Shown in pieces: positions 1-28,384 of a DNA stretch of 30,947 nt. The position numbers and the translations under genes are program-made. Location: the IMG/VR virus record IMGVR_UViG_2534682078_000030; one strand, given 5' to 3'. Under the pieces are notes generated by a model. That model was not told where the DNA came from and did not search any database. It worked only from the letters and a program-made list of their open reading frames with translations. This DNA is from a virus. Its lineage: Duplodnaviria > Heunggongvirae > Uroviricota > Caudoviricetes. The stretch's first letter is position 1. Each line of letters begins with the position of its first letter.

Positions 1-22
1 GTATATTTATCTCATGGCTTGT

Positions 23-1000
23 TGAACCGCCCCGGGTTTCCTGGAGAGTGTTTTATCTGTGAACTCAGGCTGCCAGATCATCGTTTCCGATGGAAGCATA
101 ATAAGCTTTTTCTGCTTCTGCCGGAGGAGTATGGCCCAGCCTTCCCAGCAATCGTCGATTGTTATACCAGTCCACCCACGTTAGTGTGGCCAGTTCCACT
201 TCTGCACGGTTTTTCCAGCTCTTACGGTGTATTACCTCCGCTTTGTAAAGACCATTGATGCTCTCAGCCATCGCGTTGTCATACGAGTCGCCTGTACTCC
301 CTGTTGATGCCAGTAATCCGGCTTCTTTTAGTCGCTCCGTATAGGCCAGTGACACATACTGAGAGCCTTTATCGCTGTGATGGATGGTGCCAGACGGACG
401 ACGGGCCCACAACGCCTGCTCCAGCGCATCCAGCACGAATGTCGTTTCCATAGACGATGAGACCCGCCACCCCACGATGTATCCGGCAAACACATCAATG
501 ATAAACGCCACATAGACGAAGCCCTGCCATGTGCTGACGTAAGTAAAATCAGCCACCCACAGCTGGTCAGGTCGTTCTGCCACGAACTGACGGTTTACGC
601 GGTCGCCTGCGGCAACGGCTTTCCGGCTGATGGTCGTACGGACCTTTTTACCCCGGAGAACACCGGCAAGTCCCATAACCGCCATGTTACTGCGGCGCAG
701 TTCACGATTTTCACGTTCCAGCTCTTTCAGACGCTGACGTTCAGCGCTGGTGAGCCCACCATCACCGCCCCCGGTATCCCGCTCATGCTGGCGAACCCAG
801 ACACGCAGAGTCTCCGGCGTACAGCCAATCTTTGGGGCAATGGAACAAATTGCCGCCCACTGTGAGTCATATTCATCCTGACTTTCCAGAACCATACGAA
901 TCGCCCGCTGACGGACTTCGGGGGAAAAACGAGTATTTTTAGTCATCCTGTTTACCTCTTTCTCAGGGAGTTTAGTCTCCAGGATTTCCGGGGCGGTTCA
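23..1000 (-). mobile_element. IS3-family insertion sequence (IS629/IS1203-like), copy A, 978 bp, internally deleted
   Basis: Termini match copy B: TGAACCGCCCCGGGTTTCC from 23 (right end, reverse orientation) and GGATTTCCGGGGCGGTTCA ending at 1000 (left end). It is 332 bp shorter than the 1310-bp copy B; the junction at 685/686 joins orfA codons ...RRSN to orfB codons MAVMG. Flanking triplets TGT (20-22) and TTC (1001-1003) are not a direct repeat. Confidence 0.85.
65..946 (-). CDS. IS3-family transposase, in-frame OrfA-OrfB fusion created by the internal deletion (293 aa)
   Basis: First 86 aa are identical to OrfA of copy B ([19 protein letters not shown]...RELRRSN) and the remaining 207 aa are identical to the C-terminal part of OrfB of copy B ([14 protein letters not shown]...NDDLAA). 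The programmed-frameshift window and OrfB N-terminus are missing. Confidence 0.8.
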
Positions 1001-2412
1001 TTCAGGAGGACCGCCACGAGCTGGGCGATGACATAACTCCGCGTTTTAAGGCGGAGTATGTCGACGGCTCAAAAGGCACACCAACCAGCTACATCGCCAC
1101 CTACATCGGAAAGAACCTGGACAGCCGCGCCGTGGATGGCATCGACCCGAAAACGGGCAAGCCACGCGTTGACCACGAAACCGGAAAATCAATGGCCGAG
1201 AGCGTGGAGCGCGCCATCGGCTGGGCGCGCCTTCACCGGGTCCGTCAGTTCCAGTTCTTTGGCATCCCCTCCCGTCAGGTGTGGCGTGAACTGCGCCGCC
1301 TTGCCAGCCAGATGGCACGCAATCCGGAAGGCCCGCAACGGCTGAAAGATGATGCAATGGATGCGGTACTCGCTGCCGCCGATGCCGGGTGTTTTGCCAC
1401 CTACATTGAAAAACAGGGCGGCGTACTTGTTCCACGCAAAGACTACCTGATTCGCACCGCCTACGACCTCGCAGATGAGCTGAATGATTACGGCGAACAG
1501 AGCGTACAGATTTACGGGATCTGGTCACCACTCATCGGGGAATCCTCCCGTGTGTGCACGCATCCGGATAACTGGAAACTGGTAAGACGTAAACCGGAAA
1601 CGGAAGACAGCGCCCGCGAAAATGGTTTTGACCTTCAGGGCGGCCCTGCCGCCCCTTGGACTCGTGGCAATAACTGTCCCCGTGTACAGGAAACGGACAA
1701 CAACGGGGCAGAACAGCCGGAAGAACGGCCAGCACCGTGGCCGCAGCTCCCTGACGGCGTTGAAGTGAACGAATGGATGCGCTCACTGAAACGGCACGAA
1801 CGCCGGGCGCTGATGCGTTCGCTTCGTGACAAACAGGCAAAAAACAGCAGTGATGAAATGCAGAGCTGGACACAGAGCCGCAAACAGCAGCGGCCTTTGC
1901 CTGATAACCACGAATTACTCGCTAAAGAATGGCGGGAGTCTGCCGAATCTCTCGGCCTGCATATCGGTGAACAGCAGATGCAGCACCTGCTACGGGGCGG
2001 CAGCCTGTACGTTGACGGCAGCATCATTGCACCGCAGGGATATGAAATTGTACGCAAACCGGATACCCGCCCGGACAGCCGAATCACGCAGCTCTGGCAG
2101 CACCTGAGCCGTAATCACGGCGTAAGCAGCACGGAGATCCGCCATAACCCGGTCGCCAGCTATCTGGCACAGCTGGGGGCATCAGACCCCGAAGCCGCCG
2201 CACGCCTGGCATCCGCACTTCAGCAGGATCAGAACACCATGAAAACACCCGTTACCGTGCTTTCTGACATGCTGCGCGCCATCCGCGACGCAGAGCACGC
2301 ACAGAGAATCAGTGAAACCACTGAACGCGCCAGCCGCAAAGCAGACCTGCTGCAGGGTGGCCTGACCAGTGGAAACAAAAACAGACAGAAACGGGACTCA
2401 CGAATCCCGTAA
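1001..2412 (+). pseudogene. A: Replication initiator gpA-like (rolling-circle Rep with paired catalytic tyrosines), 5'-truncated by IS copy A
   Basis: Open frame starts at the IS boundary with no start codon (QEDRHELGDD...). It contains the Y-x3-Y motif SYIATYIGKN typical of the P2 A / phiX174 A nickase family and sits upstream of the Q-P / O-N-M-L head cluster as in P2-like phages. About 470 codons remain. Confidence 0.7.
2391..2410. repeat. 20-bp palindrome ACGGGACTCACGAATCCCGT, copy 1 of 2, overlapping the gene A stop
   Basis: Inverted arms ACGGGAYT / AATCCCGT read directly in the sequence; repeated 73 bp downstream. Confidence 0.6.
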
Positions 2413-2463
2413 ATGAGCAAAAAACGCGCAGCGATATATGAAGCGCGCACAAAACAGGCAAAA

Positions 2464-2483
2464 ACGGGATTTCAGAATCCCGT
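2464..2483. repeat. 20-bp palindrome ACGGGATTTCAGAATCCCGT, copy 2 of 2, about 35 bp upstream of parM
   Basis: Perfect 8-bp arms with a 4-bp spacer; both copies are followed by TAAA. Position is consistent with an operator or centromere-like site for the parM operon. Confidence 0.6.
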
Positions 2484-2517
2484 AAACGATTAATTAATCA
2501 ACATAAGGAAAAGCGAC

Positions 2518-3477
2518 ATGAAAATTTGTATCGACGACGGCTCCACCAACATCAAGCTGGCATGGACTGAGAACGGCGAACGCCGCAACGCCATCAGCCC
2601 GAACAGCTTCAAGTCGGAATGGTCTGCGCCGTTCGGTGGCACGCAGCCCGCGAACTACATGCTTGATGGCGTGCGCTATGGTTTTGATCCGGTCAGCGAT
2701 CGCTTTGTCCAGACGACCGACACGCAATACCAATACAGTGATGTGAATGTCATTGCCATTCATCACGCGCTGGTCAAATCAGGCATCACGCCACAGGAGG
2801 TGGATGTGGTTGTCACCCTGCCACTGAGCGAGTATTTCGACACAAACGCACAGCCGGACATAGCCAACATCAACCGCAAAAAAGCGAACGTTATGCGCCC
2901 GGTGGAGTACCAGAACGGCGAAGCATTCACTATCCGTAACGTGCGGGTTATGCCTGAATCCATTCCGGCTGGCTTTAAGGCACTGGCTGACATGAGTCCG
3001 TTTGAATCCCTGCTGATTGTGGATTTGGGCGGAACCACGCTGGATGTGGCAAAGGTTCAGGGGCAGCTGGCAGGTATCAGCCAGGTGTTTTGCGATCCAC
3101 ACGTAGGCGTTTCCCTGATGGCTGATGCCGTGCTGTCGGTGATGGCCACTAACGGTATGCGTACCAGTCACCACATCGCCAATACCATTATTGAGCACCG
3201 TCACGATGAAGCCTGGCTGCGCCAGCACATTCACAATGACGCGCATTACAACAGCCTGATGGCGGTTATTCGTGAAAAGGAGGAGACACTGAAACAACGA
3301 GTGATCCGCGCGCTGGCGGGTTTTTCCGGTTACGGGCGGGTGATGGTTGTCGGTGGAGGGGCGGAGATTGTGGCACCCGCTATCCGCGAAGCCTGCGGAG
3401 TTAATGCGACTTTCATCACGGACGGGGTGCCACATTTTGCTCTGGTTAATGGGCTGTACGCAATGAACAAGGAGTAA
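2518..3477 (+). CDS. parM: ParM/StbA-like actin-type plasmid segregation ATPase
   Basis: 319 aa; N-terminus ICIDDGSTNIKLAW...ISPNSFKSEW, then YSDVNVIAIHHAL, VMPESIPAG, LIVDLGGTTLD and VVGGGAEI align closely with my recollection of plasmid R1 ParM. SD AAGGAAAA precedes the ATG at 2518. Confidence 0.85.
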   Translation: MKICIDDGSTNIKLAWTENGERRNAISPNSFKSEWSAPFGGTQPANYMLDGVRYGFDPVSDRFVQTTDTQYQYSDVNVIAIHHALVKSGITPQEVDVVVTLPLSEYFDTNAQPDIANINRKKANVMRPVEYQNGEAFTIRNVRVMPESIPAGFKALADMSPFESLLIVDLGGTTLDVAKVQGQLAGISQVFCDPHVGVSLMADAVLSVMATNGMRTSHHIANTIIEHRHDEAWLRQHIHNDAHYNSLMAVIREKEETLKQRVIRALAGFSGYGRVMVVGGGAEIVAPAIREACGVNATFITDGVPHFALVNGLYAMNKE

Positions 3478-3481
3478 ACCA

Positions 3482-3793
3482 ATGACGACACCAACCAGAA
3501 GAATAAGTTTCTATCTGAAGCCAGCTGCCGTCAAGAACGAAGGAGAAGCATGCGCCTGGCTGGACAGCCTTACACCAGAAGCCCGCAAAAGCGGCCAACG
3601 CGTGGCTTTTCTGGCCGGGCTGGCACTTCTGAAGACGAATCCGGCAGAGGCTTACCGACTGGCCGCATGGGCTGATGATGAGATGTTACCTGTGACACAA
3701 ATCAGCTCAAAAAAGTTTGAAGCACAGTCTGCACCAGTGGCTAAGATAACCAGCCAGATGGCTGGGAATATCCGGGCGTTATTTCCTGAGTAA
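3482..3793 (+). CDS. parR: ParR/StbB-like centromere-binding adaptor
   Basis: 103 aa immediately after parM; RRISFYLKP...LDSLTPEARKSGQRVAFLAGLAL resembles the R1 ParR N-terminal ribbon-helix-helix region (RRTIAFKLNP...LDSIPQGERSRLNRAALTAGLAL). Confidence 0.7.
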   Translation: MTTPTRRISFYLKPAAVKNEGEACAWLDSLTPEARKSGQRVAFLAGLALLKTNPAEAYRLAAWADDEMLPVTQISSKKFEAQSAPVAKITSQMAGNIRALFPE

Positions 3794-3921
3794 AAGCATC
3801 TGCGCGAAAAATGCTCACATTTATAGAAACAGTATCATTCCATTTGGCGCACTTACTTCAATAATCGATCTGTTAAACAAATAGATTGTCTATTATCTAT
3901 CGATTAAAACGATCAATTATC

Positions 3922-3949
3922 TTGACAGTAATGTGCCTTTTTGTAAGAT
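3922..3949 (+). promoter_or_regulatory. Candidate sigma70 promoter TTGACA-16-TAAGAT
   Basis: Perfect -35 hexamer at 3922-3927, 16-bp spacer, -10 TAAGAT at 3944-3949, inside an AT-rich region with nested inverted repeats (TAATCGAT...ATCGATTA at 3861-3906). Sequence-only prediction. Confidence 0.4.
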
Positions 3950-4000
3950 CGTTCGCATTGTGAGCGACAAGATAATTGCGCGGCATTGTCCATGCAAAAC

Positions 4001-4026
4001 GCCCCAATAGCAGCAACTATTGGGGC
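4001..4026 (+). other. Stem-loop GCCCCAATAG-cagcaa-CTATTGGGGC (10-bp perfect stem, no U tract)
   Basis: Perfect inverted repeat read in the sequence, downstream of the candidate promoter. Confidence 0.4.
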
Positions 4027-4055
4027 GTAGAACTCGGTCGGACTCACTTAACCTG

Positions 4056-4140
4056 ATATGCGTGCCTTCCGAAGTAAATCAAAATGTGCGTCGTATATTT
4101 TATTGCTTACACGCACCTCTGTAAAGGCACGCATATTTTT
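4056..4140 (+). other. Long hairpin ATATGCGTGCCTT ... AAGGCACGCATAT with inner GTGCGT/ACGCAC stem, followed by TTTT; terminator/attenuator or structured RNA
   Basis: 13-bp arms at 4056-4068 and 4124-4136 enclose about 55 nt containing a second inverted repeat; the T run at 4137-4140 is directly before the SD and GTG start of the next ORF. Confidence 0.4.
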
Positions 4141-4157
4141 CCTATGAGGTAAATAAA

Positions 4158-4427
4158 GTGCGGGCTAAAACAGGTATTTGCAAGAACCCTCATCGTTATA
4201 ACCCAACATTTCTGTCTCTCCCTGAATATCAAGGACAAGAAGGTCGGCACAAATGCGCTGCCTGTGCTTTTGAGCTAGGCATAAAAGATGCGCTTGAAGG
4301 ACGCGCTATGGCTCAGAATGATTTAGTTTTAGCTAACATTCCGTTTAGCCAGGCTGGAACTGTAAGGCACAGAGATGCTTATGAAGCATATGTTCGTGGT
4401 TGGCGATTAATACACAGCAACAATTGA
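4158..4427 (+). CDS. Hypothetical 89-aa protein (GTG start), Cys-containing (HKCAACAFELG)
   Basis: ORF with SD GAGG 8 nt upstream of GTG and a strong intrinsic terminator directly downstream. I do not recognise a family. Confidence 0.5.
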   Translation: MRAKTGICKNPHRYNPTFLSLPEYQGQEGRHKCAACAFELGIKDALEGRAMAQNDLVLANIPFSQAGTVRHRDAYEAYVRGWRLIHSNN

Positions 4428-4435
4428 TATTTTTG

Positions 4436-4460
4436 AAGCGCCGATAAGGCGCTTTTTTTT
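4436..4460 (+). terminator. Rho-independent terminator AAGCGCC-gataa-GGCGCTT followed by T8
   Basis: GC-rich 7-bp stem and a run of 8 T, 9 bp after the stop codon at 4425-4427. Confidence 0.75.
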
Positions 4461-4989
4461 GTTTGCACGATAGTGCACAAGTTTGCACAATTTTTTTGAA
4501 CGACTTTTTGTACTTCCGGCCCGCGTGGCGGCTGGATCCGTCAAGGATCCGTACGTGCACAAAAAACGCGTTTTTTCTACGCGCAGGTGACGGGGGAACA
4601 GCCCGCGTTTCAGGGGGGTAAACAGCATTCCCTGAACGATGTCGCAGAGACACAACAGAATGGCCATATTTCTCACGCTGAGCATGAAAAAGGCGTGAGG
4701 GCTTTTGATTTGATGGGGTGAAAGGTAAGGCCGTCAAAATCGCACTGAGGCAGCGAGAACATACAGTCAACGCGGTGGGATTGCGTAAGAGTCTGACCGT
4801 CGATGGTGGCGATAAACTGGAAGGCGTCGTGAAATTATCTGATTGATACAGGAGCTGGAGAGCCGGGGCATAAATTTTTTATGCCCCGGCGAAGCAGCAG
4901 ACAAGCGAAGCGCGTCAGTGATGCGGCACCTTGCCGACCACACTTCATAAGTGCAAAATACGAGCAAAGAAATCAATGGAGGCTGTTTT

Positions 4990-5514
4990 ATGGTCATTAA
5001 TTACAAGCAGTTACGAGAAAAACGAGAGCAGGTAAAGGAAAGTTTTCGCCGCAATGAAGATCTGACCCCGCTTGTACACCTTGCTCAGGGAATTGTAGAT
5101 GCTTATGAAATCTCTCTGGAGCTGCCATCACAGACATGGACTGATAGCGACGGTAATCGCCAGCATTACGTTTCATGCGGACTGGAAACAACTGAAGGGT
5201 TTCGCAGAATGCCTTTATCTCAGATTCCTGCCTCTACCCCCAAAGCAAGGGGCGGCAATGATGAGCGAAAACTGATTTTCAGCATTGAGACAGTGGTTGA
5301 CGACACACCTGGCGAAGTCGCCTTCGTGCATACTCCTCTTTCGATCGCAATGTATAACGATGAAATACAGGTTCGCGTTAATAATAATATCGTGCCACTT
5401 AAAGAAGGTAATTCACCCTACACCACCGTTTGTGAAGCCATTCAATATTACGTTCTCTCTGAAATTGATAATCTCAAGCCTGACGGCACCCAGAAAATGG
5501 TTCAACTCTGGTAA
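4990..5514 (+). CDS. Hypothetical protein, about 174 aa, unknown function
   Basis: ATG at 4990 with GGAGG 7 nt upstream (the tracked ORF opens at 4951, but the start at 4990 has the SD). Terminated by a hairpin plus T run. No recognisable motif. Confidence 0.5.
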   Translation: MVINYKQLREKREQVKESFRRNEDLTPLVHLAQGIVDAYEISLELPSQTWTDSDGNRQHYVSCGLETTEGFRRMPLSQIPASTPKARGGNDERKLIFSIETVVDDTPGEVAFVHTPLSIAMYNDEIQVRVNNNIVPLKEGNSPYTTVCEAIQYYVLSEIDNLKPDGTQKMVQLW

Positions 5515-5519
5515 AAAGG

Positions 5520-5545
5520 ACAGCCCCATCACGGGGCTGTTTTTT
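5520..5545. terminator. Bidirectional intrinsic terminator ACAGCCCC-atcac-GGGGCTGT flanked by A5 and T6
   Basis: 8-bp GC-rich stem with a U tract on either strand; lies between the convergent 174-aa ORF and Q. The Q stop codon (5529-5531) is in the loop. Confidence 0.7.
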
Positions 5546-6575
5546 CATCAAGAAGAGCATAAGAATTAAAACGGATCACCTCTTCGCCAAGCCAGTCATT
5601 GATGTGCTTCATGGCCTCCATAACGGGCATCAGCTCGTTAATTGCATAAACCCGCGCGGCCTTCTCCACATCACCAAACGCACTTTTTTCGCCCGGCATC
5701 GCCCCCATCAGTTGCGGCGGAACACGGTGCGCAGCCAGCACATCATCACGGGATGCCGCCTTAACATTCATGAACTCATCTTTTGCGGTGATCTGCTGGA
5801 ACGGCAAAATTTGCACCCCCTCTTTGCCCCCGTTGGGCGCATGAATGAGCACGTTTTTAAATGCACCACTACCACGTGCACCCTGTAATGTTTCTTTCAG
5901 GGAGTCCATGCTTTCGCGGTTTACCTGCGCTGCACCGATGTAGATGATGCACCCGGCGTGGGATCCGTTGTCGTAATACAGTTTTCTGAACATGTCCGCC
6001 GAATGAGACAGGCTGGCCGAGAGTAATGCGCCGAGATATTCCGGCATGCCGTAGATTTCCTGGTTAATATCCGGATTCATCAGGTGGCACACTTTGCCAG
6101 GGCGAAACTGAAACGCGTCCTTGCCATCCTGCACATACCACCATGATTCAAGATCGCTTCCGCGTCGCATGTATTTCGCCAGTGCGTGCCGTAATTTAAG
6201 CGGTTCGCCGAGCATATTGCTTCGAAGCTCAAGGTATGCGTTACCGAACACAAACCAGTCCAGCGCCAGCGCCGAGAAATCCTGCCGGGAAAGCAGCGGG
6301 TGCGGAATATAGCAGCCGAGCAATACATTGCGCTTAAAGTAAAGCGCAGACTGATGCCAGGACGTTTGCCGGGCGGCTCTTGCCAGACCGTACCAGTCCA
6401 CCGGGGTTTCATACCACCGCCCGTTATCAGCACAGTACATATTGTCCAGCAAATCATGCCCGGTCAGGCGATAAGGACCATCAAAAGTGAATGCACTGAG
6501 CGACGATTCTTTCCTGAGCGCATCAGCGAGATCAATGCGTGAACTCATGCGCACTTTTTTATTTTTTCTGCTCAT
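5529..6575 (-). CDS. Q: Portal protein (P2 gpQ family)
   Basis: 348 aa, immediately downstream of and overlapping the terminase large subunit on the same strand, as in P2; length and position fit gpQ. Confidence 0.8.
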   Translation of the reverse strand: MSRKNKKVRMSSRIDLADALRKESSLSAFTFDGPYRLTGHDLLDNMYCADNGRWYETPVDWYGLARAARQTSWHQSALYFKRNVLLGCYIPHPLLSRQDFSALALDWFVFGNAYLELRSNMLGEPLKLRHALAKYMRRGSDLESWWYVQDGKDAFQFRPGKVCHLMNPDINQEIYGMPEYLGALLSASLSHSADMFRKLYYDNGSHAGCIIYIGAAQVNRESMDSLKETLQGARGSGAFKNVLIHAPNGGKEGVQILPFQQITAKDEFMNVKAASRDDVLAAHRVPPQLMGAMPGEKSAFGDVEKAARVYAINELMPVMEAMKHINDWLGEEVIRFNSYALLDEKTAP

Positions 6576-8326
6576 CAGAACTCCATAACCGTGAAACGCT
6601 CGTTTTCTCCTTCGCCGCCAATTGGTTCGTTAATGACAGCAAGCATGGTTGCCCACGCAAGGTCGCCGTGGCTGATCCCCCTCGCGCGGTCCGTTTCGTA
6701 AGTGATAAAACCGCCCGGTGTTTTCACCTTACGCACGGCGTTAAAGGCCGCGACCAGCTCGCGTTCGGCGCGATCGTATTCCCACCGCCCGGCACGCATT
6801 ATTTGCAGCATTTTCAGTACCAGCGACCGTTTTGATGACAGCGTGAAGGTGTACGGAATAGCAGCAGGGAAAAACCGTTTCACTATCTGATAAACAGCCT
6901 CCCCGTTCCCGCCCGTCACATCAATGCCGATGTGTTCCACGTTGTAGCGACACGTGAACTCTTCAATGACTCTGGCCTGTTCTTCAAACTCCAGCCCCTG
7001 AACGCGTCGCGTCTCCACCGTTCGAAAACGGCCACCAGGAACAGCCGGAGGAACCACCACAGACACAGCGCCGCTGTCGCCGTTGCCACTGCTGCCGTTT
7101 GCGTCATACCCAATCCATACCGGACGATTCCCCATCGGGCGGGGAGCAAAAGGTTTCCAGTCTTTCCAGTCGTCGTATCCGTCAACACCGCAGCCAATCA
7201 GGATATTCAGGTTAAATGCCGATTCCCCTTCGCGGACAAACTCACACATATAGAGATTGAGGAACTCGTCTTCGGTGTTTTCATCACGAATTTCGTCGAT
7301 ATCGGTGTGTTTCCAGCCGTGATTAACCACATCTTCCAGCGTGACAATTTGCCGCCACGTCCGGTCAGGGCAGATAAGCCCGTTATGCAGCGTATTCCAG
7401 TCCACAGAAAAACGCCGGCGTTTATGCGTGGCCTTTTTCTCGTTCCAGCGGTCGCCGTTCCAGTAGGCGTATGCTTCGTGCGTTTCGGTGGATGGCGTGG
7501 AGAAGTAGGTGCGCCGCAGTCCGCTGAGGGTTGCCATAGCGCCAGCCACCTTGCGCAGTTCAGCAAAGCGACTGACCCAGAAAAATTCATCAAAATAAAA
7601 ATTGCCCGTATAGGACTGCGCCGACGCAGCAGAAGTGCCGAGAAAATGCAGCTCTGCGCCATTGGAGAGGATGATTTTATCGCCCCCTTTCAGCTCCACA
7701 TCAACTTCAGCCGCAGCCTTCTGAATAATGCTTTTAAACTGGAACGCCTGACGACGCGACGCAGACAAAAAAATCTGGTTACGCTGGTAAGGTTGCGCCA
7801 CATCGTCACGCAGCGCCATCAGCAGAGCTTCCTGTGCAAAATACCAGGTCGCCCCAATCTGTCGGGATTTCAGGATCATCCTGTTACGTATCCCGGCTTC
7901 CCTGCAAAGGGTCAGGGAGTCAAACCAGCCCCGCTGATGCCACTCCAGCCTGCTGATGATTTTTTCCCGCAGTGCGGAAATCTGTTCCGGCGTGAAATGA
8001 TTTTTGAGTTTTTTCGCCCGGCCTTTCTTTCCTGCGGCCATCACATCCGGATGGCCATCATGCAGCTTTTTAAGCTGCCGGGTCAGCAGGTCTATTTCCT
8101 TAAAGTCACCGCCTGTTTTATTCTGTTTTTCAGTAAGCTGGATGAGGCGCGCATCGATGGACTGCGTGACACGCTGCACGGGTGGCGTTTCATCCCACTG
8201 GTCGCGTTTTTTCCACGCATAAATCGTGTTCGGGTTTATTCCCATCAGACGTGATATTTCTGCGGGCGGATAACCCTGCCAGTAAAGTTGCCGCGCACGC
8301 TGGCGCACAAAAGCGTCCTGAATCAT
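6575..8326 (-). CDS. P: Terminase large subunit (P2 gpP family)
   Basis: 583 aa; divergent from the O-N-M-L operon across a 120-bp intergenic region, as in P2. Confidence 0.85.
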   Translation of the reverse strand: MIQDAFVRQRARQLYWQGYPPAEISRLMGINPNTIYAWKKRDQWDETPPVQRVTQSIDARLIQLTEKQNKTGGDFKEIDLLTRQLKKLHDGHPDVMAAGKKGRAKKLKNHFTPEQISALREKIISRLEWHQRGWFDSLTLCREAGIRNRMILKSRQIGATWYFAQEALLMALRDDVAQPYQRNQIFLSASRRQAFQFKSIIQKAAAEVDVELKGGDKIILSNGAELHFLGTSAASAQSYTGNFYFDEFFWVSRFAELRKVAGAMATLSGLRRTYFSTPSTETHEAYAYWNGDRWNEKKATHKRRRFSVDWNTLHNGLICPDRTWRQIVTLEDVVNHGWKHTDIDEIRDENTEDEFLNLYMCEFVREGESAFNLNILIGCGVDGYDDWKDWKPFAPRPMGNRPVWIGYDANGSSGNGDSGAVSVVVPPAVPGGRFRTVETRRVQGLEFEEQARVIEEFTCRYNVEHIGIDVTGGNGEAVYQIVKRFFPAAIPYTFTLSSKRSLVLKMLQIMRAGRWEYDRAERELVAAFNAVRKVKTPGGFITYETDRARGISHGDLAWATMLAVINEPIGGEGENERFTVMEF

Positions 8327-18871: not shown

Positions 18872-19447
18872 TGACATTCAGAATGAGTGAACAATCACGG
18901 ACCATAAAAATTTATAATCTACTGACCGGAACCAATGAGTTTATTGGTGAAGGTGATGCATACATTCCACCTCATACAGGTCTGCCTGCAAACAGTACCG
19001 ATATTGCCCCGCCAGATATTCCGGCTGGCTTCGTGGCCGTTTTCAACAGTGATGAGGCATCGTGGAATCTCGTTGAAGACCATCGGGGAAAAACCGTCTA
19101 TGACGTGGCTTCCGGCGACGCGTTATTTATTTCTGAACTCGGTCCATTACCGGAAAATGTTACCTGGTTGTCGCCGTATGGAGAGTATCAGAAGTGGAAC
19201 GGCACATCCTGGGTGAAAGATGCAGAAGCAGAAAAACTGTTTCGGATAAGGGAGGCGGAAGAACAAAAACAGCCTGATGCAGGTAGCCAGCGAGCATATT
19301 GCGCCACTTCAGGATGCCGTAGATTTGGATATTGCAACGGAGGAAGAGGCATCGTTACTGGCTGCATGGAAGACATACCGGGTATTGTTGAATCGTGTTA
19401 ATACAGCGGTAGCAGCGGATGTTGAGTGGCCAGTCGCCCCACAATAA
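18871..19447 (+). pseudogene. G: Tail fibre assembly chaperone (gpG/Tfa family), frameshifted at an A5 run (19265-19269)
   Basis: Frame 1 ends at 19401 with an atypical Cys-rich tail. The -1 frame from the A run encodes the conserved Tfa C-terminus [58 protein letters not shown], ending at about 19447. Confidence 0.6.
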
Positions 19448-19490: not shown

Positions 19491-20063
19491 CTATTTATAC
19501 AATACAACACCGCTCTTTTTAGTTATATATGTGCAGTTCGATGGTATATCTTTATTTATAAAAGACATTGCACCTATTTTTACATTATCCCCAATTTTAC
19601 GTGATAATCCAATGATGCAACAATTAGCTCCGATATCAACGTTACTACCAATTTTTACTCTTGAACCAGGCATGTCACCATCTATCTGTCCAATGGTAGT
19701 ATTCTGTCGTAACACCAGATTTTCACCAGCATCAACAGCAAAATGAACAACAATTCCAGCATGATGGGGAATTGTTAACCCTTTTCCAATATTTGCGCCC
19801 AATCCAATTTCACAACCAAATTTGTTAATTATTTTACTGTTTAACTTTTTGGCTGCTTTCTTATGTAATTTATTACCATTAATATACATTTCGTTAGCCA
19901 ACCGCCACCAGAAAAGGAAATTCCGGTTACGCTGTTTTTTCTCTCTTAAAAGCCTCCAGATATCCATACGTTTCCGCCGAATTACTTCATATTTCCAGAA
20001 GTTTTTTAAATTAGTAGAGTCCCCAAATAAAACAAAGTGAATTGCCATTAAGTAAGACAGCAC
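19491..20063 (-). CDS. Hexapeptide-repeat (left-handed beta-helix) acetyltransferase, cargo gene at the Z/fun position
   Basis: Repeated [LIV]-G-x-x-x-x hexads (IGLGANIGKGLTI, VKIGSNVDIGANCCIIG, KIGDNVKIGAMSF); AT-rich. Likely GTG start at 20063 with SD AAGGAG (the tracked ORF starts at 20096). Confidence 0.7.
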   Translation of the reverse strand: MLSYLMAIHFVLFGDSTNLKNFWKYEVIRRKRMDIWRLLREKKQRNRNFLFWWRLANEMYINGNKLHKKAAKKLNSKIINKFGCEIGLGANIGKGLTIPHHAGIVVHFAVDAGENLVLRQNTTIGQIDGDMPGSRVKIGSNVDIGANCCIIGLSRKIGDNVKIGAMSFINKDIPSNCTYITKKSGVVLYK

Positions 20064-20114
20064 GATAATCTCCTTAATTATTATTTCAGACCACACATAT
20101 TATAAGGTTAAGAG

Positions 20115-24893: not shown

Positions 24894-25220
24894 ATGACTA
24901 AAAATACTCGTTTTTCCCCCGAAGTCCGTCAGCGGGCGATTCGTATGGTTCTGGAAAGTCAGGATGAATATGACTCACAGTGGGCGGCAATTTGTTCCAT
25001 TGCCCCAAAGATTGGCTGTACGCCGGAGACTCTGCGTGTCTGGGTTCGCCAGCATGAGCGGGATACCGGGGGCGGTGATGGTGGGCTCACCAGCGCTGAA
25101 CGTCAGCGTCTGAAAGAGCTGGAACGTGAAAATCGTGAACTGCGCCGCAGTAACGATATCCTTCGCCAGTCTTCCGCTTATTTTGCGAAGGCGGAGTTCG
25201 ACCGCCTCTGGAAAAAATGA
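24894..25220 (+). CDS. IS3-family transposase OrfA (helix-turn-helix, leucine zipper)
   Basis: 108 aa, [41 protein letters not shown]..., which I recognise as IS629/IS1203 OrfA. Confidence 0.9.
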
Positions 25221-26107
25221 TGCCACTGCTGGATAAGCTGCGTGAGCAGTACGGGGTCGGACCGGTATGCAGCGAACTGCATATTGCCCCGTCAACGTAT
25301 TACCATTGTCAGCAACAGCGACATCATCCGGATAAACGCAGTGCCCGTGCGCAGCACGACGACTGGCTGAAGAGAGAGATACAGCGCGTATACGATGAAA
25401 ATCATCAGGTGTACGGTGTGCGTAAAGTCTGGCGTCAGTTGTTACGGGAAGGAATCAGGGTGGCCAGATGTACAGTGGCACGTCTCATGGCGGTTATGGG
25501 ACTTGCCGGTGTTCTCCGGGGTAAAAAGGTCCGTACGACCATCAGCCGGAAAGCCGTTGCCGCAGGCGACCGCGTAAACCGTCAGTTCGTGGCAGAACGA
25601 CCTGACCAGCTGTGGGTGGCTGATTTTACTTACGTCAGCACATGGCAGGGCTTCGTCTATGTGGCGTTTATCATTGATGTGTTTGCCGGATACATCGTGG
25701 GGTGGCGGGTCTCATCGTCTATGGAAACGACATTCGTGCTGGATGCGCTGGAGCAGGCGTTGTGGGCCCGTCGTCCGTCTGGCACCATCCATCACAGCGA
25801 TAAAGGCTCTCAGTATGTGTCACTGGCCTATACGGAGCGACTAAAAGAAGCCGGATTACTGGCATCAACAGGGAGTACAGGCGACTCGTATGACAACGCG
25901 ATGGCTGAGAGCATCAATGGTCTTTACAAAGCGGAGGTAATACACCGTAAGAGCTGGAAAAACCGTGCAGAAGTGGAACTGGCCACACTAACGTGGGTGG
26001 ACTGGTATAACAATCGACGATTGCTGGGAAGGCTGGGCCATACTCCTCCGGCAGAAGCAGAAAAAGCTTATTATGCTTCCATCGGAAACGATGATCTGGC
26101 AGCCTGA
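25217..26107 (+). CDS. IS3-family transposase OrfB (DDE catalytic domain)
   Basis: 296 aa in the -1 frame relative to orfA, normally expressed as an OrfAB fusion by frameshifting at the A run. Confidence 0.9.
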
Positions 26108-26149
26108 GTTCACAGATAAAACACTCTCCAGGAAACCCGGGGCGGTTCA

Positions 26150-26152
26150 GAT
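26150..26152. repeat. Target-site duplication GAT, right copy
   Basis: Triplet immediately 3' of the IS terminus ...GGGCGGTTCA. Confidence 0.8.
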
Positions 26153-27275
26153 GGCACTGATAACATCCTTCACGTTCGCAGGCGTCAGTGGACTGTCGAT
26201 GGTTTCAAACTGCGCTTCCGCAATTGAATCAGCAAGCACCTGTGCGGTTCGGGTATACACCTCAAAGATGTAGGCGTTCGTTTCCGGTGTGCGGTTGCCC
26301 CAGAAGCGGAACCCGTTGCGACGAATAATGGTCGTGATTTCTTTGTTGTTGAGGCTGTTGGCATCGCTGTCTTCGGCCTGCAACGACCAGAACACATGCC
26401 TCGACATCCCCAGCACATTTTTAACCGGAACGTTGGACAGTGATTTGTGCCAGCCCTGCTCATGGTCAATGTACGCACGAAGGCCGCACGCATAGGCAGG
26501 CGCGGGGAACGTTTCGTTTTTGCCACTTTTCGGGTTGTAGGCGATGAAGTCCGGCCATAAGAGCATCACCTCACGTTCGTTGAATTTCTGGCGGTAGGTA
26601 ATCGCCTCAGCCATCGTGTTACAGCCGTGACATGAGGCATACACAAACGCGCGCAGTTTACCCGCAATCACGCACAGGGATTTTGTTACCGCCTCCGTGT
26701 CCAGCTCCGGCGCGGCCAGAATACGCGGACGGTATCCGATGCTTTCATCCTGCTCTGCAACAAGCAGCGCATACATCCCCGTATAGCTGCCGTCAGATTC
26801 AGAACCACCGATAACCAGTTGATCCTGCGTTTTTCCGTCTTCTTCTTTATGTTCAGCCACGCGAACGACGATCACCTTTGTGCTCACCTGGTCTGCGATG
26901 GCCTTAAGCGCACGATAAAGCGTCCCCGTTGTTCCGCATTTTCCCAGCACGTCATTGACGCGGGTCAGCAGTGTGGGCTTGTTCAGCGGGAACAGCTCCG
27001 CGTCCGCATCATCCGCCGTTGCCACGATACCGATAACACTGGAATCAACATCATTAATCGCTGTTACCAGGTCGGTACTTTCCGTAACACGGGCACCATG
27101 AAAACGAGTTTCACTCATAGCTTCAGCCCCTTGTATCCGTTAAATGATTCGGCAACAATCATCACCCACCACGCGCGTAATCTCACCCCTGCGCCGTTCT
27201 CCCGCCCCGGCGACAACAAAAAGCAGTAACCCCCTCCGCACGCACATGCGACCATGCCGCACAGGGAGGGAGCAG

Positions 27276-28384
27276 ATGACCGACACCACCATGCAATTGC
27301 TCAGTCAGGGCACAGACCCCGTGAAAATGCCGGATTTTGATATTCTCGCGGAGGGTAAAACGCTGTCAGGCGTGGCAGAGCGCCTGATGAGCCTGTCACT
27401 GACCGACAACCGGGGATTTGAGGCGGACCAGCTCACCATCACGCTGGATGATGCGGATGGTCAGTTGCAGCTACCGCCACGGGGCGCGCGCCTGACGGTT
27501 CTCATTGGCTGGAAAGGAGAACCGCTGACAGAAAAAGGCACTTACATTGTTGATGAAATCGCTCACGAAGGACCGCCGGACAGGCTGACTGTTTCAGCCA
27601 GAAGCGCAGATTTTCGGGATGAATTTAACGTTAAACGTGAGGTGTCCTGGCATGATGTGACCGTTGAGCGTGTGGTATCCGCCATCGCTCATCGGTATGG
27701 TCTGAAACCGCAAATCAGCGAAATGCTGATGGATATCGAAATCGACCACGCCGACCAGACCGAAGAAAGCGACATGTCCTTCCTTACGCGCATGGCGGAA
27801 ATGCTGGGCGCAATCACCACGGTAAAAAGAGGTAATCTGTTATTCATCATGCCCGGCGGTGGCGTGAACGCACAGGGCCAGCCGTTGCCCTCGTTCGCCA
27901 TCACACGCAGCAGCGGCGATCGCCATCAGTTCCGCATTGCTGACCGCGAAGCGTATACGGGGGTACGCGCTTACTGGCTTGATCTTAATTACGGGAAAAA
28001 GAAAAAGTCAGCGTGAAACGCCGCAAACCGTCAAAACCAAAAAAGGAGAAAAGCAGCAGCCGGGAAGGCGACTATATGGAAGGTGCGGAAGGCAACGTGT
28101 TTGTGTTACGCAAAACTTATCAGAACGAGCAGGCAGCAAGACGTGCAGCGGCGGCAAAGTGGCAGCAGCTACAACGCGGAGCCGCATCATTCTCCATCAC
28201 ACTGGCGCATGGACGTGCAGAACTCTACCCCGAAATGCATGGCACGGTAACAGGATTTAAAAGCGAGATTGATAATCAGGACTGGATTATTGCAAAAGCC
28301 GAGCACACCATTGATAACAGCGGCTTTACCACGCAGCTTGAGCTTGAGGCAAAAATCCCGGAATGGATAGCAGAAACAGAGTGA
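27276..28384 (+). pseudogene. D: Tail protein D (P2 gpD family), split by a -1 frameshift in GGGAAAAAGAAAAAG (27993-28007)
   Basis: N part (to 28016) has SLSLTDNRGFEADQLTITLDDADGQL and SARSADFR; C part (from 28013) has REGDYMEGAEGNVF and GFTTQLELE; both are collinear with P2 gpD. ATG at 27276 is preceded by GGGAGGGA. Could equally be a homopolymer sequencing error. Confidence 0.6.

Follow-up and report, generated by a model that had tools for sequence, protein, structure and literature searches.

Why phages of the P2 type, which integrate into the chromosome of their host, should keep the motor of a plasmid partition system beside their replication gene is the central question raised by the locus considered here. 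The locus lies in a stretch of 30,947 nucleotides, the IMG/VR virus record IMGVR_UViG_2534682078_000030 (hereafter the window), which is a defective P2-like prophage of Escherichia coli. Directly after the replication endonuclease gene A, two genes of the same strand, separated by 4 nt, encode a ParM-like actin ATPase and a ParR-like adaptor in the order of the par operon of plasmid R1. A preliminary reading of the letters alone (the sequence-only reading) had proposed as much, and Pfam, PDB and alignments agree with it, down to the exact coordinates. The hypothesis that we favour, and to which we give an even chance of being correct, is that these genes belong to a complete type II (ParMRC-type) segregation module of the replication or early region, which would stay silent in lysogeny and, once infection or induction has taken place, would drive the movement of circular phage genomes.

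The first of the two proteins matches the Pfam families StbA_N (3.5e-82) and ParM C-terminal domain (2.5e-67) as well as PHROG 691, 'partition protein' (1.3e-89), and a phmmer search of PDB retrieved R1 ParM (1mwk) at an E-value of 3.5e-92 over residues 2–316. A scan of NCBIfam yielded sub-threshold matches only. Global identity to R1 ParM is 46.2%. The sequence-only reading had made its assignment depend on the phosphate and adenosine motifs of the actin fold, and all of them were found: phosphate-1 (IDDGSTNIKL) and phosphate-2 (DLGGTTLD) are the same in the two proteins, E147 and D169 correspond to E148 and D170 of R1, and the adenosine motif GGGAE is retained. Judged by its sequence, the 319-residue protein is a genuine ParM with intact nucleotide motifs. 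It is full length in 86 of the 87 related loci that were gathered from IMG/VR, phage records and genomes, and pairwise Nei–Gojobori comparison of these loci gives parM a ratio of non-synonymous to synonymous substitution rates (dN/dS) of 0.06.

The profile hidden Markov model confirmation called for by the sequence-only reading extends to the second protein, which matches Pfam Plasmid_stab_B (9.8e-24, 83 bits for a cut-off of 25) and PHROG 2515. A PDB search with the single ParR sequence gave no match and a profile search was needed: a profile of ten ParRs, that of the window included, matched the structure of pB171 ParR ('StbB protein', 2jd3) at an E-value of 1.6e-15. The protein aligns with the ParRs of R1, IncI and IncF plasmids over the N-terminal strand R-R-I-S-F-Y-L-K-P and helices, and again at the extreme C-terminus, where the window tip NIRALFPE, which reads N-x-x-x-L-F-P, is aligned with KKNAMKLIN (R1), RRNAENMFGDD and NNIKNLFPDDE (IncF). 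The motif N-(I/A)-x-x-(L/M/F)-(F/I) aligns at the C-terminus of all ten ParRs compared, and N96 is invariant. The predicted adaptor combines, from N- to C-terminus, a DNA-binding domain of the ribbon–helix–helix family, a variable linker and a tip of the ParM-binding type. By the same pairwise method, dN/dS is 0.12–0.15 in parR codons 1–60 and 0.4–0.5 in the linker; in the last 11 codons it is 0.04 for allele A, and the corresponding ratio of proportions (pN/pS) is 0.18 for allele B. Such a pattern is the one that would be expected of a working adaptor in which a flexible linker joins a head that binds DNA to a tip that binds the motor. The two alleles in circulation, of 103 and 104 residues, have in common their first 17 residues and the DNA boxes upstream of parM that are described below. 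Covariation between allele and box was tested for and rejected, since the N-terminal strand is common to the two alleles and the boxes do not differ between them. The linker is hypervariable across the related loci, and recombination breakpoints occur within parR, homology to the window stopping near 3628, 3670 or 3678 in some loci.

These selection data bear on the idea that the pair is a neutral relic of an old recombination between plasmid and phage, with no present function. Exchange of ParM between plasmids and phages did happen, long ago, to judge from a rough neighbour-joining tree in which two phage ParM groups and the IncI/IncF plasmid group form one clade (bootstrap 82; the tree settles neither the order inside the clade nor whether the phage ParMs are monophyletic). 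Phage genomes are limited in size and shed useless DNA, however, and the low dN/dS of parM, the domain-wise pattern in parR, the full-length reading frames of nearly all loci and a gene order kept down to 54% ParM identity (see below) make the relic highly improbable.

The sequence-only reading placed the pair where P2 carries tin and old, and the locus is indeed the gpA–gpQ interval that holds these genes in P2 (PMC9122126). The view that the pair is, like them, dispensable accessory cargo did not survive the comparison of loci. In most of the 87 loci, homology extends from the 3′ end of gene A across the spacer and both par genes as far as 3793, where the parR stop codon is complete; 33 different sequences follow directly 3′ of this stop. 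Since homology stops at that codon, the variable hotspot begins after parR. A query that runs from 400 nt before the end of gene A to 400 nt into parM matched 1372 E. coli genomes, in 1287 of which (94%) the junction is contiguous. Sequence comparison hence indicates that parMR is part of the backbone of the P88-like (Xuanwuvirus) lineage, tied to gene A, rather than variable cargo. The adjoining cargo region of about 1.7 kb, where the GC content falls to 0.445, has its own promoter-like site, with inverted repeats on its flanks (Table 1).

The conservation of this arrangement also weighs on a related proposal, namely that parMR is a moron expressed from the prophage at the tin/old defence hotspot, acting against plasmids or related phages through incompatibility caused by its centromere or ParR, or conferring another benefit on the host. 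Anti-phage systems abound in the interval (PMC9122126), the gene of PhiSM is counted as a 'fitness' factor in a Citrobacter study (PMC6456863), and the module is intact in a defective prophage. We nevertheless consider the proposal very unlikely. The module is not variable; it is fixed with the gene A allele and its synteny is kept across genera. PADLOC gave no match for it and no promoter was detected before parM, unlike the situation in the adjoining cargo. With a ParM at most 52% identical to those of plasmids (prophage-carrying records aside) and a different ParR, cross-reaction with plasmid centromeres is unlikely. As for its intactness, the parMR segment is 100% identical to many E. coli chromosomes, mostly of O111 strains (e.g. 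NC_013364), and this full identity, found in at least 25 of the genomes listed, reflects very recent decay of the prophage in O111 strains.

Of 5426 complete E. coli genomes, 1304, or about a quarter, contain the 1.38-kb parMR segment at an identity of at least 90%, O157, O111, O26, O104 and ST131 strains among them; this frequency agrees with the 'around a fourth of P2-like phages' of an earlier survey (PMC9122126). The segment occupies 1452 places in these genomes, 1450 of them chromosomal. Places exceed genomes by 148, so that many genomes carry two or three copies. Fourteen phage records also contain parMR, among them P88, 520873, 503458, PhiSM, Chuche and other members of Xuanwuvirus. In 12 of the 14 P88-like phage records ParM is 97–99% identical to that of the window; a fragmented copy in 503458, a relative of 520873, is 94% identical to it. 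A ParM 97% identical to that of the E. coli phages was also encountered on a 226-kb contig labelled 'Vagococcus sp.' (NZ_JBQPOM010000071.1), which most likely represents enterobacterial contamination of the assembly.

Beyond this lineage, a large protein collection contains ParM homologues at 54–63% identity, above the bulk of plasmid ParMs; those borne by plasmids in PLSDB are at most 52% identical if prophage-carrying records are set aside. All four homologues of the 54–63% class that were examined belong to P2-like prophages and stand at the same locus. In Plesiomonas (ParM identity 63%) the order is gpA–ParM–ParR–(cargo)–ogr–portal–terminase. The same order recurs in Hafnia (61%) with one open reading frame (ORF) between A and parM, in Serratia (58%) with HicAB cargo after parR, and in Enterobacter (54%), where two small ORFs precede parM and a KAP NTPase follows parR. 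Two homologues at 48–50% identity were found, by their contexts, in a plasmid-like region and in an integrative and conjugative element, respectively. A scan of GTDB species representatives with strict peptide patterns retrieved only 3 loci, one of them labelled Vagococcus; the wider distribution comes from the protein search and context look-ups.

A third component of a ParMRC-type system would be a cis-acting site. Upstream of parM, a 39-nt direct repeat occurs in two copies (Table 1), both of which hold an 8-4-8 palindrome, ACGGGAyT-N4-AATCCCGT, a pattern without further copies in the window and with just two in P88. Comparison across lineages reveals within it a box, GGG-N10-CCC, whose two copies stand at −125 and −52 from the parM start codon in E. 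coli, at −131 and −59 in Plesiomonas and at −128 and −55 in Hafnia. The spacing is thus 72–73 bp in all three lineages, or about seven helical turns, and the two boxes form the sole GGG-N8-12-CCC pair spaced by 71–74 bp in the whole 30.9-kb window; the same holds for the P88, Plesiomonas and Hafnia loci (15–36 kb). Box 1 falls within the last codons of the upstream gene, which encode RDSRIP in E. coli but AGQQKPEIA in Plesiomonas; therefore it is the DNA, not the protein, that is conserved. Moreover, the complementary arms of the Plesiomonas and Hafnia versions are only 3–4 bp long, which argues against a role as hairpin or terminator and for a protein site. The two boxes are likely to be the candidate ParR site, be it a centromere, an operator or both. 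The leader between the second repeat and parM has a counterpart, ATTAATCAA...ATAAGG, in Plesiomonas and Hafnia.

Other roles were considered for this region. The palindromes score as terminator-like on the − strand only, and a terminator was rejected on the ground that Plesiomonas and Hafnia keep GGG-N10-CCC with such short arms. A folding signal in the spacer RNA (z = −4.8) is merely due to the repeated palindromes pairing with each other, and Rfam gave no match in the region upstream of parM. A motif scan detected neither a sigma-70 consensus promoter upstream of parM nor a + strand terminator between A and parM.

The sequence-only reading offered two explanations for the presence of the module: a phage-plasmid lifestyle of the ancestral phage, or recruitment of a segregation machine for another purpose. 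According to the former, parMR would keep these phages, now or in a recent ancestor, as low-copy plasmid prophages, in a role like that in R1. This has been proposed in print (PMC9122126); the module is a complete plasmid-type system, the phage-plasmid D6 encodes a ParM homologue 47% identical to that of the window, and the Plesiomonas relative lies on a phage-sized contig of 32 kb. A further hint is NZ_CP148288.1, a circular 'plasmid' record of 34,461 bp from an E. coli strain isolated from a cat, which consists of a whole P88-like phage with int, parMR, all structural genes and a closed attP junction. Either a true plasmid state or an episome released by induction may lie behind it. The products of P2-type replication are monomeric circles; therefore an induced subpopulation would give just such a circular contig, and spontaneous induction explains the record equally well. 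A 1.95-kb cargo–portal segment of this phage is, furthermore, 99.9% identical to a copy integrated in the chromosome of another, similarly designated strain.

The remaining evidence also speaks for integration. Nearly all E. coli places are chromosomal, as given above, and the 'plasmid' matches in PLSDB are mostly records of 0.2–1.4 Mb. One that was opened, the 272-kb Salmonella record NZ_CP110658.1, carries the chromosomal genes rplS, pheA and tyrA together with a P2-like prophage containing parMR and sopE; it is probably chimeric or misassembled, and it places the module in a SopE-carrying Salmonella prophage. Each of the complete relatives inspected (P88, NZ_CP148288.1 and the Plesiomonas prophage) encodes an integrase together with parMR, unlike the either/or pattern of phages that truly switch to plasmid prophages. 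No plasmid-type initiator is annotated, the sole annotated replication gene being that of the rolling-circle endonuclease A. A stable phage-plasmid lifestyle is therefore unlikely, and the second explanation, a putative recruitment of a segregation machine for another purpose of the phage, fits better.

If the module serves the circular phage genome after infection or induction, as we favour, its working may be pictured as follows. Because parMR has no recognisable promoter of its own, it is probably co-transcribed with gene A from the early operon, so that its products would be made on infection or induction and would be absent from the repressed prophage. Dimers of ParR would bind the two GGG-N10-CCC boxes just 5′ of parM, and their conserved C-terminal tips would capture filaments of ParM–ATP. 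The growing filaments might then push or position the circular genomes that arise from A-dependent replication. The benefit could be either of two: replicating circles could be spread for efficient replication and packaging, as AlpAC does for prophage CGP3 (see below), or unintegrated genomes could be helped to reach both daughter cells before integration. The many genomes with two or three copies and no apparent incompatibility fit silence in lysogeny, since multiple copies would be awkward for active, identical partition systems and pose no problem if the module is silent.

Several points weigh against this picture. The lytic cycle is short, so that segregation to daughter cells would rarely matter, and ParMRC pushes pairs of replicated centromeres, from which the benefit to a rolling-circle phage is not obvious. 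The relatives in Serratia and Enterobacter are without the GGG-N10-CCC pair and carry instead a 14–20-nt inverted repeat with a GGGAAC core. An array of some ten iterons, as in R1, was not found by repeat search or by Tandem Repeats Finder between 2000 and 5600. Perhaps the boxes are no more than an operator, or they act as an RNA element; a frequent box variant, in which a C of the stem is replaced by T, would keep a G–U pair in RNA. A weak or non-consensus promoter in the spacer is possible. Finally, the literature yielded no experimental or functional study of the P2-like parMR module.

It is nonetheless tempting to speculate further. In a more elaborate form of the hypothesis, which we advance tentatively and hold a little short of an even chance, ParMRC would be, and would since ancient times have been, a core accessory to the replication module of several integrating P2-like lineages, with a minimal two-box centromere overlapping the end of gene A and expression from the early operon only. 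It would position or separate the monomeric circles produced by rolling-circle replication and would be the Gram-negative counterpart of AlpAC, a bacterial actin in the service of a virus rather than of a plasmid.

The state of the prophage in the window has to be kept apart from these considerations. The sequence-only reading took it for a P2-like prophage, and the P2-like context stands, with the correction that the prophage is defective: gene A, the tail sheath gene and gpD are all damaged. With gene A cut short and structural genes disrupted, the module is probably idle in the window and persists intact as the passenger of a prophage that is dead. The features of the window are compiled in Table 1.

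Table 1. Coordinates of the parMR locus and of other features of the 30,947-nt window
Feature	Position	Strand	Basis or remark
Replication endonuclease gene A, 3′ remnant, 426 codons	1132–2412	+	phrog_6857 6.9e-230; phrog_91 2e-96
Stop codon (TAA) of gene A	2410–2412	+	
39-nt direct repeat, copy 1, overlapping last codons and stop of gene A	2378–2416	+	Repeat search
Palindrome of copy 1, ACGGGACT-CACG-AATCCCGT	2391–2410	+	Repeat search
Box 1, GGG-N10-CCC, −125 from parM ATG	2393–2408	+	Pattern comparison across lineages
Spacer between gene A and parM, 105 nt	2413–2517	+	ORF coordinates
39-nt direct repeat, copy 2, 82% identical to copy 1	2451–2489	+	Repeat search
Perfect palindrome of copy 2, ACGGGATT-TCAG-AATCCCGT	2464–2483	+	Repeat search
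Box 2, GGG-N10-CCC, −52 from parM ATG, 73 bp after box 1	2466–2481	+	Pattern comparison
Nearly invariant leader TTAATTAATCAACATAAGGAAAAGCGAC with Shine–Dalgarno-like AAGGA	2490–2517	+	Alignment of 50 distinct upstream variants
parM, 319 aa	2518–3477	+	Pfam StbA_N and ParM C-terminal domain; R1 ParM structures
parR, 103 aa	3482–3793	+	Pfam Plasmid_stab_B; profile match to 2jd3
Variable cargo region	3794–5528		Homology among 87 loci ends at 3793 in most
Promoter-like site of cargo, TTGACA-16-TAAGAT	3922–3949		
Perfect 13-bp inverted repeat in cargo	4056–4068/4124–4136		
Cargo ORF, 89 aa, function not assigned	4158–4427		phrog_3941
Non-coding gap in cargo, 520 nt	4428–4950		
Cargo ORF, 187 aa, function not assigned	4951–5514		phrog_5091
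Portal and terminase genes	5529–8326	−	Downstream flank of cargo
IS3-family (IS1203-like) element truncating gene A	1–1000		
Transposase ORF of this element	65–946	−	
IS009 RNA family match	19214–19410	+	Rfam, 182 bits
Hexapeptide acetyltransferase-like ORF	19491–20096	−	Low GC
Second IS3-family element, orfA	24894–25220		
Second IS3-family element, orfB	25217–26107		
ALIL frameshift pseudoknot of second element	25175–25291		
Tail-sheath remnant	26147–27118	−	
gpD, two ORFs	27144–28016; 28013–28384		
PIN-domain protein, 500 aa	28610–30112		GC 0.37–0.40

The remnant of gene A covers only profile positions of about 434–837 (phrog_91 is described as 'nicking at origin of replication'), and RefSeq labels the identical O111 locus 'replication endonuclease, incomplete, missing N-terminus'. 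Its 5′ part was removed by the insertion sequence of the IS3 family at the window start, the transposase of which is a single fused ORF of 293 residues. The ALIL frameshift pseudoknot recognized by Rfam is absent from this copy, whereas the annotated copy in NC_013364 has one. On account of the fused ORF and the missing pseudoknot, this copy seems to carry an internal deletion. Immediately beyond the left end of the window, the O111 reference genome has a truncated integrase.

The tail-sheath gene is interrupted by a second IS3-family element, and gpD is broken into two ORFs. The gene for a PIN-domain protein lies downstream of what is left of gpD, in low-GC DNA; in the O111 reference it stands between gpD and ogr. 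It had no match in PADLOC, and it could represent accessory or defence cargo of another variable site in the prophage. A low-GC ORF resembling hexapeptide acetyltransferases, located between the tail-fibre assembly gene and tail genes, adjoins a match to the IS009 RNA family.

Neither the module nor its phage-plasmid interpretation is new. Both are already annotated or in print: RefSeq names the proteins 'plasmid segregation protein ParM' and 'plasmid partitioning/stability family protein', each of them has a family in PHROGs, and Rousset et al. (2022; PMC9122126) reported a putative partition system at gpA–gpQ in about one-quarter of the P2-like phages of E. coli, "perhaps" for plasmid maintenance. 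What is added here, from comparison of sequences, is the backbone linkage to gene A, the synteny over several genera, the signs of selection and the conserved two-box element. Should the module indeed move phage genomes, actin-assisted positioning, so far shown for CGP3 in Corynebacterium, would extend to well-studied enterobacterial phages, and a very small, genetically tractable variant of ParMRC with a two-site centromere would be at hand. Were the plasmid state real, P2-like phages would have a third lifestyle, of relevance to the spread of virulence cargo.

Among known systems, the closest is parMRC of R1 (stbA/stbB), with its kin on pB171, IncI and IncF plasmids. The P2-like module shares with it the order parM–parR, preceded by what would be the cis site, a ParM with all nucleotide-binding motifs, and a ParR of the same Pfam family with homologous N-terminal region and C-terminal tip. 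The R1 type stabilizes an autonomous low-copy plasmid, whereas the P2-like module resides in an integrating rolling-circle phage, more than 99% of its E. coli copies being chromosomal. The parC site of R1 comprises ten 11-bp iterons and an autoregulated promoter; the P2-like module has instead two 16-bp boxes 73 bp apart, the first in the end of gene A, and no recognizable promoter. Its ParR is also shorter, 103 residues as compared with 116 in the R1 type and 138–140 in IncI/IncF, the middle region being reduced.

The best functional precedent is AlpC/AlpA of the Corynebacterium glutamicum prophage CGP3. These proteins are induced early and are required if phage DNA is to be replicated efficiently, and the binding site of AlpA is upstream of the operon that encodes it (Donovan et al. 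2015; PMC4446434). In both cases an actin-like ATPase and a DNA-binding adaptor are encoded by an integrated prophage; the P2-like pair, seen here in its gene architecture, adjoins a replication gene. AlpC/AlpA belong to another host phylum and another phage type, and the likeness is meant as an analogy and not as a claim of membership.

Phage-encoded ParM homologues of the StbA type are also known from D6. This phage-plasmid is annotated as a 91-kb phage, whereas P88-like phages are integrating phages of 31–40 kb; we take D6 to be a P1-like plasmid prophage in which partition has its ordinary plasmid role. More generally, phage-plasmids such as P1, N15, D6 and SSU5 are extrachromosomal, with plasmid-type replication and usually without integrase, while the P88-like relatives have an integrase, only endonuclease A, and a chromosomal location. 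The cargo of the P2 gpA–gpQ interval, of the tin/old type, differs in another way: it is variably present, has its own promoter and often matches defence systems, and parMR fits none of these traits. The module of P88, 520873, PhiSM, the SopE prophage of Salmonella and the survey of Rousset et al. (2022; PMC9122126) is the same as that of the window. That survey treats it as one arrangement of a hotspot and suggests plasmid maintenance; in our analysis it appears as part of a backbone linked to gene A, likelier to be used on the excised or infecting circle.

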